A stretch of 64,000 bases of DNA from Dictyostelium discoideum (GCA_000004695.1 CM000152.2:4896001-4960000), one strand, 5' to 3'; shown: positions 23,137-23,393, numbered from the stretch's first letter. A program made the numbers and translations. The notes: generated by a model from the letters alone, not told the origin.

Positions 23137-23393
23137 TTTGAAAGCAAAGTGATCATCACTATTATAGCTATTAAAAATCTTAACATGATTATTTTTTATC
23201 TTTTTTTAAAAAAAACTATTAATATATATATTTTTAAAAGTTTTTCTTAAATGGAAATAATGTTTTGGAATGTTTTGATAAATGCACTATAAAAAAAGAT
23301 CCAAATTATACAAAAAATTGTTTAAAATTTGTTGTAGAGAAACATTGTACCACTTTATTACTTGAATGTACAAATGAATGTTCTATAAACTAG
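23137..23393 (+). pseudogene. Copy A of the small secreted 6-Cys peptide family. The mature-peptide part is intact (23250-23393: NGNNVLECFDKCTIKKDPNYTKNCLKFVVEKHCTTLLLECTNECSIN*), but the 110-bp ATG/signal-peptide segment (23137-23246) is inverted relative to copies B and C.
   Basis: The reverse complement of 23137-23246 aligns base-for-base with copy B 24766-24872 ('...gataaaaaataatcatgttaagatttttaatagctataatagtgatgatcactttactttcaaa'). The flanks, including the TATA promoter block at 23048-23060 and the downstream mature-peptide sequence, are collinear with copy B. Confidence 0.5.

Follow-up and report, generated by a model that had tools for sequence, protein, structure and literature searches.

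A four-point model of short-range template switching is said to have been set out by Loytynoja & Goldman in 2017. Micro-inversions bounded by inverted repeats of 3 to 75 nt are a described class of mutation and have been ascribed to template switching or to MMBIR (PMC8755829), and the loci of template switches are enriched in AT-rich, poly(dA:dT) DNA (PMC7954356). Inversions are also found within duplicated genes, as in Lymnaea, where the antiNOS RNAs come from a NOS pseudogene made by duplication and an internal DNA inversion (PMC3537157). In bacteria, the invertible promoter or leader switches of the fimS and hin type reverse a short expression-signal segment relative to the coding body, with defined inverted repeats, a dedicated recombinase, and both orientations in populations.

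Here, we describe a gene copy in which a short expression-signal segment is likewise reversed relative to its coding body. It lies in Dictyostelium discoideum AX4 DNA, within an analyzed stretch of 64,000 nucleotides (the window; 22.4% GC) with three tandem copies (A, B, and C) encoding peptides of ca. 65 to 72 aa that have a signal peptide and six cysteines. The reversed block of copy A is a near-exact reverse complement, at the same position and between collinear flanks, which is how a micro-inversion is recognized. The features of the locus are as follows.

22906 to 23135, plus strand: upstream (promoter) block of copy A, direct, 93.0% identical to B 24543 to 24763
23133 to 23135, no strand: left junction microhomology TAA, assignable to either the direct flank or the inverted block
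23136 to 23246, minus strand: inverted leader block, 110/111 against the reverse complement of B and 92% against C
Inside this block, minus strand: 60 nt of upstream sequence (23246 to 23187), ATG (23186 to 23184), and 17 signal-peptide codons to 23136
23247 to 23249, no strand: right junction microhomology TTA, directly at a 9-bp deletion in A
23250 to 23393, plus strand: mature-peptide segment of copy A, NGNNVLECFDKC...ECSIN, with the stop TAG at 23391 to 23393 (tblastn and frame analysis)
23394 to 23649, plus strand: 3' flank of copy A, direct, homologous to B 25047 to 25305 (95.8%)
24543 to 25305, plus strand: copy B (DDB_G0281753), intact reference paralogue, CDS 24824 to 25042, 72 aa
27551 to 28170, plus strand: copy C (DDB_G0281757), more distant intact paralogue, CDS 27705 to 27908, 67 aa, leader direct

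The reversed leader of copy A

Alignment of the A unit to the B unit in both orientations, which the preliminary description had proposed as a check, gave three BLASTN blocks in direct, inverted, and direct order: 22906-23135 with 24543-24763 (93.0% identity), 23133-23252 with 24877-24758 (98.3% over 120 bp; E value of 1e-58), and 23259-23649 with 24905-25305 (90.6%). A repeat search, separate from BLASTN, returned the same inverted arm pair, and the inverted match between A and B far exceeds chance. The unambiguous core (23136-23246, 111 bp) has its uninverted counterpart at 24764-24874 in B and agrees with the reverse complement of that segment at 110 of 111 positions; the sole mismatch, at 23145, is synonymous (TTG/TTA, Leu). 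Significant matches to the inverted block within the 64-kb window were three, namely, A itself, B in reverse (99.1%), and C in reverse (92%), and among these three copies, the inverted orientation belongs to A only. The inversion and the direct orientation of both flanks had been correctly recognized in the preliminary description, but the segment had been given as 110 bp and as matching B base for base, and its coordinates in B (24766-24872) were off by 2 nt at each end. The end of the segment at signal-peptide codon 17 also held, while the 58 bp assigned to the 5' untranslated region (UTR) proved to be 60 nt upstream of the ATG. Their designation as a 5' UTR is an assumption; they may include the T-run and the transcription start site and thus part of the core promoter.

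A second assembly bears directly on whether the inversion is real. The single-exon kinase encoded 7 kb upstream (window positions 14382-16172) is encoded identically in a separate chromosome-level record, GCA_054883475.1 CM142509.1 (6.43 Mb, compared with 6.36 Mb for the AX4 contig), and a 21.8-kb locus of that assembly (L008) is collinear with window positions 4337-26222 at 99.56% identity. The two sequences are near-identical (ca. 0.02% substitutions), with 25 differences in 21.9 kb that are mostly homopolymer lengths, together with one 21-bp indel and a few substitutions. Window positions 23100-23300, which contain both junctions and the whole block, recur exactly in L008 (position 18694). 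Dictyostelium DNA, being AT rich, is unstable in Escherichia coli clones, and the reference assembly was built from Sanger reads of plasmid libraries; both points speak for an assembly or cloning artifact, that is, an inversion absent from the DNA of the organism. We give this reading hardly any credence. The orientation in an independent assembly had been named beforehand as the test for an artifact, and CM142509.1 is inverted and identical over 201 bp across both junctions, yet it differs at 25 places elsewhere. Moreover, the block carries an A-specific base at 23145, and an in-place inversion shorter than a sequencing read cannot come from an assembler. Since, in addition, the two assemblies agree, the inversion is present in the genome and an artifact is very unlikely. 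The second assembly may share a laboratory lineage with the window, and the agreement therefore bears on the artifact and not on the frequency of the inversion in populations.

As for the coding consequences, a tblastn search with the B peptide found the mature part of A on the plus strand (23250-23384) and its leader on the minus strand (23186-23133), as well as B (24824-25039) and C (27705-27902). The mature frame of A is open from 23238 to 23393 and keeps the six cysteines, with no in-frame ATG; every plus-strand ATG at copy A lies in a different frame. On the minus strand, the open reading frame (ORF) that starts at the flipped ATG (MLRFLIAIIVMITLLSNLYLYIYFLPF) enters the former promoter and stops after 27 codons. 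Copy A, as it stands, has thus lost the capacity to code for the family product. Because its mature-peptide exon is uncoupled from any start codon and signal peptide, it would now be a pseudogene, in agreement with the earlier view that it cannot make a secreted product; that no product is made is a prediction from the reading frames. Along similar lines, a search of 5.8 billion proteins found both B and C and no protein model for A, and the 72-aa product of B is identical to [quoted passage not shown] A literature search found no papers mentioning the gene identifiers or the assembly accessions. When positions 23136-23246 were reinverted in silico, any breakpoint within the microhomology gave a continuous 65-aa precursor, MLRFLIAIIVMITLLSNLNGNNVLECFDKCTIKKDPNYTKNCLKFVVEKHCTTLLLECTNECSIN. 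This restored precursor is intact and in frame (MLRFLIAIIVMITLLSNLNGNNVLECFDKC...ECSIN), which strongly backs a single clean, in-place inversion of a once-intact gene.

Polarity of the inversion and the peptide family

The locus of ACTFIR_000464 in GCA_054859385.1 (L007) is syntenic with the window, with a shared gene order of kinase, GET4, abhydrolase, peptide cluster, leucine-rich repeat (LRR) gene, La/RRM gene, and RCC1 gene. Its flanking regions are 86 to 94% identical to those of the window, and the genome is ca. 7 to 12% diverged. This locus holds three family copies (L1, L2, and L3) and a remnant, and all of the leaders are direct. Copy L3 has the upstream flank of A (L007 12118-12207 corresponds to window 22840-22931), encodes MLRFLISIIMMITLLSNLNTVNGNNFFECFDKCTIKKDPNYSQNCL..., and is the co-orthologue of A and B. 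The uninverted state is therefore that of the outgroup, as of B and C, and given the direct leaders in L007, including that of L3, the inverted state is derived and specific to copy A. The flanks of A and B have diverged by 1 to 4.5%, less than the two genomes have from each other, which places the A/B duplication and the inversion, as judged from these divergences, in the AX4 lineage.

Several features of this outgroup record deserve mention in their own right. Although GCA_054859385.1 is labeled Dictyostelium discoideum, it is only 86 to 94% identical to the window over the syntenic 21 kb, coding genes included (window 12168-37378), which suggests a distinct (cryptic) species or lineage, or a mislabeled record. 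The order of the copies also differs, the C-like copy lying upstream of the A/B-like copy in L007 and downstream of it in AX4. At L007 10001-11596, the annotated 129-aa protein of ACTFIR_000464 consists of two fused tandem copies of the family, L1 being complete, while the ORF of the C-like L2 ends early, at 48 aa, with the remaining mature peptide in another frame. The break in L2 is a frameshift or a homopolymer sequencing error, and ACTFIR_000464 is probably an artifact of the gene model. Few substitutions separate the two same-species assemblies, and one of them falls in the upstream block of A, at 22936 (L008 18530), where the window has A, as does L3, and L008 has C, the state of B at the homologous site; a small A-B gene conversion or paralogue cross talk in assembly polishing could account for it.

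Further members of the family came from an exhaustive profile search, with names attached afterward. At least eight are annotated genes of AX4, located on two contigs of chromosome size (6.36 and 8.48 Mb), and two are ACTFIR_ genes of GCA_054859385.1. The collected sequences (P0001 to P0008, P0011, and P0012) share a leader of the form ML(K/R)xLIAILV..LLSNLNAVNG and a mature part of the form C-x3-C ... C ... C ... C-x3-C. The signal peptide is conserved (dN/dS ratio of 0 to 0.12), and the mature part is hypervariable with fixed cysteines (dN/dS ratio of 2.5 to 3.3 against C). Between the signal peptide and the first cysteine, AAT/TTT repeats form a hotspot of indels, and B has a specific 9-bp insertion there (24890-24904, codons N-F-P), which neither A, C, nor any L007 copy shares. 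In Pfam, the peptide gave only a subthreshold hit to DUF326 (15.7 bits against a cutoff of 20.4). An AlphaFold2 model had moderate confidence (pLDDT of 71), with helices at 27 to 40, 44 to 47, and 54 to 68, and a PDB fold search with this model returned no match at an E value of <8. A tRNA search of the locus gave nothing informative for classification. The profile search found relatives of the peptide in Dictyostelium-labeled records only, and exact 20-mer scans of metagenome and prokaryote genome collections gave chance matches without extended similarity. Judging from these searches, this is an undescribed, fast-evolving orphan family of secreted peptides restricted to Dictyostelium. A high turnover of its members is indicated by the remnants found in the family loci, which are leader-only, frameshifted, or leaderless.

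Degenerate units were also seen apart from copy A. Upstream of A, a fourth unit (22233-22354) is promoter-like, with 82% identity to A 22939-23055 and no peptide ORF after it. Its counterpart at L007 ca. 10690-10880 is an apparent leader remnant starting with ATG TAA (read by eye, not aligned); if this correspondence holds, the remnant predates the split of the two genomes. At L009 10600-10740 (JBTAPF010000020.1, ca. 830 kb from L007), ca. 420 bp downstream of ACTFIR_000751, lies a leaderless family pseudogene that is 5' truncated and has an internal stop, reading SFADPNYN, a stop, VCTNGLPGAACRIIFEKCAKNCQNH, and another stop. This fragment was considered as a possible leader inversion and rejected as such, being a 5'-truncated pseudogene. 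No leader inversion was found elsewhere in the family in the window, L007, L008, or L009.

Junctions, flanks, and neighboring changes

The left breakpoint directly follows a TATA-like TATAAATATAA, with which the promoter block of A ends. The proximal 89 nt of this block are almost those of B (88/89), and there are 0 differences from L3 at the 85 aligned positions. The 3' flank has 7 substitutions against B in 256 aligned nt. Whether the inverted block is closer to B than the flanks are, which would suggest recent conversion, was evaluated; the difference was not significant (P = 0.31 to 0.32), and the candidate was dropped. Promoter and leader are, among the copies compared, simply conserved throughout the family and between genomes. 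Farther upstream, 21837-21993 and 22756-22886 are a local duplication (95% over 78 nt and 87.5% over 48 nt), which shows the entire interval from the abhydrolase gene to copy A to be pieced together from segmental repeats.

A 3-bp inverted microhomology, TAA/TTA, assignable to either side, directly abuts the core, consistent with the weak microhomology noted at the breakpoints in the preliminary description. The outward inverted repeat is 3 bp long, and because a match of at least 3 bp occurs in 4.4% of random 111-bp placements within this AT-rich window, the use of microhomology in the inversion is weakly supported. At the right junction, A lacks 9 bp (AATACTGTA-type, codons T-V-N). As L3, B, C, L1, and L2 all keep them, the loss is specific to A. 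It could belong to the inversion event, in which case the right junction microhomology is 2 bp, or it could equally be independent slippage between TAAAT repeats. The left breakpoint sits after the TATA-like TATAAATATAA and ahead of a T8 run. In Dictyostelium, T-runs typically precede transcription start sites (PMC6161686). Given this position between the two elements, the inversion may also have parted the TATA element from the start site.

In copy A, changes are concentrated on the right side of the breakpoint; they were polarized with L3 as the outgroup. Between 23262 and 23398, there are 15 A-specific substitutions (14 in the 147-nt mature segment and 1 just after it), all located 16 to 152 nt from the breakpoint, and an 8-bp deletion between 23385 and 23386, in addition to the 9-bp deletion at the junction. 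On the rest of the A branch, substitutions numbered 2 for the upstream block (230 nt), 1 for the inverted block, and 5 over 230 nt of the 3' flank, and B has only 3 specific changes in the same mature segment. The excess over the 3'-flank rate of A itself is large (3.2 expected; P = 7e-6). Synonymous A-specific changes are also in excess (4 observed versus 0.53 expected; P = 2e-3), with a pN/pS ratio of ca. 0.5; positive selection as the sole cause of the diverged mature segment was rejected on these grounds. G:C sites were hit preferentially (P = 0.002). The strand-coordinated signature of single-stranded DNA damage was not significant (C versus G, P = 0.19; pyrimidine versus purine, P = 0.07), and for the densest subcluster (23322-23338), no donor within 3 mismatches, direct or reverse complement, was found in 22501-24200.

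The cluster coincides exactly with the hypervariable mature-peptide region of the family. Given this coincidence, the lack of significant strand coordination, and the lack of a nearby template, it may be unrelated to the inversion. Three causes are candidates: error-prone synthesis in connection with the inversion; a mature segment of greater age, its flanks having been homogenized with B by gene conversion; and the hypervariability typical of the family together with chance. For the second of these, a tree built from the mature segment alone, ((B,L3),A), is compatible with a clock (branch counts of 14, 3, and 7).

Downstream of copy A, ca. 270 bp 3' of its stop, lies a near-perfect palindromic hairpin (23662-23760) with a third partial arm at 23791-23818. 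It stands exactly where the A/B homology ends and is identical in L008. Its predicted RNA fold has −76.6 kcal/mol (z = −11.6), and it scores 96 bits on the plus strand and 94 bits on the minus strand against Rfam RF03716 mir-7131 (gathering score of 74). A literature search found no mention of "mir-7131." The hairpin is probably a repeat of the thug-S type, which has been reported with multicopy miRNA loci in D. discoideum (PMC6161686, PMC4894637).

Origin of the inversion and its described counterparts

We consider it very probable that copy A underwent an ordinary microhomology-mediated micro-inversion, with no programmed function, that pseudogenized a young paralogue. Copy A would have arisen as a young tandem duplicate of a B-type gene, and after this duplication, a single event would have flipped 111 bp in place, comprising the sequence below the TATA-like element, the ATG, and 17 codons, with the ends rejoined at the 3-bp inverted microhomologies TAA/TTA. 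As to the mechanism, we infer, with about even confidence, a replication or repair template switch of the MMBIR/FoSTeS type, in which a nascent strand would jump to the complementary template at TTA/TAA, copy ca. 111 nt, and jump back, losing 9 bp at the return junction and possibly leaving an error-prone tract downstream. This route is favored because micro-inversions as a class are attributed to it and because template switches are enriched in AT-rich, poly(dA:dT) DNA, a context that describes the copy A locus (22% GC in the window). The 9-bp junction deletion and, within 152 nt to its right, the 15 A-specific substitutions and the 8-bp deletion fit error-prone break-induced synthesis. The earlier suggestion of a repair scar is in keeping with the 3-bp microhomology junctions.

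Dictyostelium also has nonhomologous end joining dependent on Ku, DNA-PKcs, and Lig4, and a possible, if less probable, origin is that two double-strand breaks ca. 111 to 120 bp apart released a fragment that was religated in reverse by classical or alternative end joining, with resection taking 9 bp at the right end. Clean junctions, a microhomology of 2 to 3 bp, and a small deletion at one junction only all suit such an origin. However, it needs two simultaneous and very close breaks and the retention of a fragment of ca. 111 bp, and by itself, it leaves the dense substitution cluster right of the breakpoint unexplained; junction sequence alone does not separate end joining from template switching. 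The chance that the block is a programmed invertible element, flipped by a site-specific recombinase to turn copy A on and off, we put close to nil, even though the flipped segment is quite precisely a functional module (the sequence below the TATA-like element, the ATG, and the signal peptide) and its reinversion yields a perfect ORF. No inverted repeat of >3 bp directly flanks the block, and within 30 nt outside and 10 nt inside each end, the best exact inverted repeat was 5 nt, below the null mean of 5.9. No recombinase was found among the Pfam annotations of the neighbors in L007 and L008 (kinase, GET4, abhydrolase, LRR protein, La/RRM protein, and RCC1 protein), nor were there long ORFs within the cluster. 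Copy A is inverted in both same-species assemblies, a single orientation at the assembly level; all remaining copies of the family, in the window as in L007 and L009, are direct; and A has accumulated two further deletions and many substitutions. The recombinational on/off inversion raised in the preliminary description is thus not supported, the repeats, recombinase, and alternative orientations of fimS and hin having no counterpart here.

Highly improbable in our estimate is an exaptation in which the promoter of A transcribes the flipped block into an RNA antisense to the 5' ends of B, C, and perhaps other family mRNAs, acting as a trans natural antisense transcript or a trigger of small RNAs. 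As the proximal promoter is intact, a putative plus-strand transcript of A could carry up to 111 nt antisense to the mRNA 5' ends of B and C. For this reading, one can cite that the promoter is unchanged (88/89 against B and 85/85 against L3), that the block is still 110/111 complementary to B, that a miRNA-type hairpin lies ca. 270 bp 3' of A, and that active RNA interference (RNAi), Dicer, and RdRP pathways (PMC6161686, PMC4894637) and the Lymnaea antiNOS precedent (PMC3537157) are on record. However, the outgroup shows equal conservation of the promoter and leader, which may reflect only recency or former function; the lower divergence of the block and promoter relative to the 3' flank of A is not significant (A-B, P = 0.31). 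Moreover, with the left breakpoint between the TATA-like element and the T-run, the start may shift, leaving little or no overlap with the B mRNA. We hold it quite improbable, too, that the flipped leader was co-opted, giving a noncoding RNA of A whose 5' part is antisense to paralogue mRNAs and acts as a trans-antisense or small interfering RNA (siRNA) regulator, or else that the whole locus records a single MMBIR-type event with a mutation shower.

With an ordinary micro-inversion as the preferred reading, the copy A locus offers a clean, fully polarized case: 111 bp were inverted in place, the junctions are defined, the outgroup state is available, and a second assembly confirms the arrangement. 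The genome is extremely AT rich, and frequent template switching during replication is expected in it. The locus would represent one concrete route of gene death in an orphan peptide family with fast turnover, other copies of which die by truncation or frameshift. Annotation pipelines miss such cases, in which a leaderless open frame stands beside a reversed leader. Should the substitution cluster have arisen together with the inversion, the locus would preserve a natural trace of error-prone break-induced synthesis in Dictyostelium, and should A be transcribed, it would become a candidate antisense regulator within a quickly evolving family of secreted peptides in an amoebozoan; in any other case, the inversion is an ordinary mutational scar.

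Among described systems, the antiNOS pseudogenes of Lymnaea stagnalis (Korneev et al.; PMC3537157) resemble copy A in being duplicated copies with an internal inversion and a potential antisense region. Experiments in Lymnaea demonstrated a transcript, an RNA duplex, and a regulatory effect, whereas A is known from its DNA arrangement, and its transcription start is possibly disrupted. Short-range template switches (Walker et al. 2021; PMC7954356) share with A the inverted copying of nearby sequence in replication and an AT-rich, poly(dA:dT) setting, and they can show as clustered apparent substitutions and indels. They mostly span tens of nucleotides and often copy a neighboring segment, whereas A is inverted exactly in place, with no templated source found for the adjoining cluster. 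The evolutionary micro-inversions between human and chimpanzee (Potapova, Kondrashov & Mirkin 2022; PMC8755829) are, like that of A, precise in-place reverse complements, copied almost without change, with collinear flanks, and their edge inverted repeats (3 to 75 nt, only 3 nt in eight cases) can be as short as those of A, which are likewise very short. Compared with that set, the 111 bp of A are several-fold longer than their 17 to 33 nt and lie in a protist genome of 22% GC; the translation start was struck, and a 9-bp junction deletion and a substitution cluster adjoin the block. The inversion of copy A is a fresh example of this known kind of mutation.
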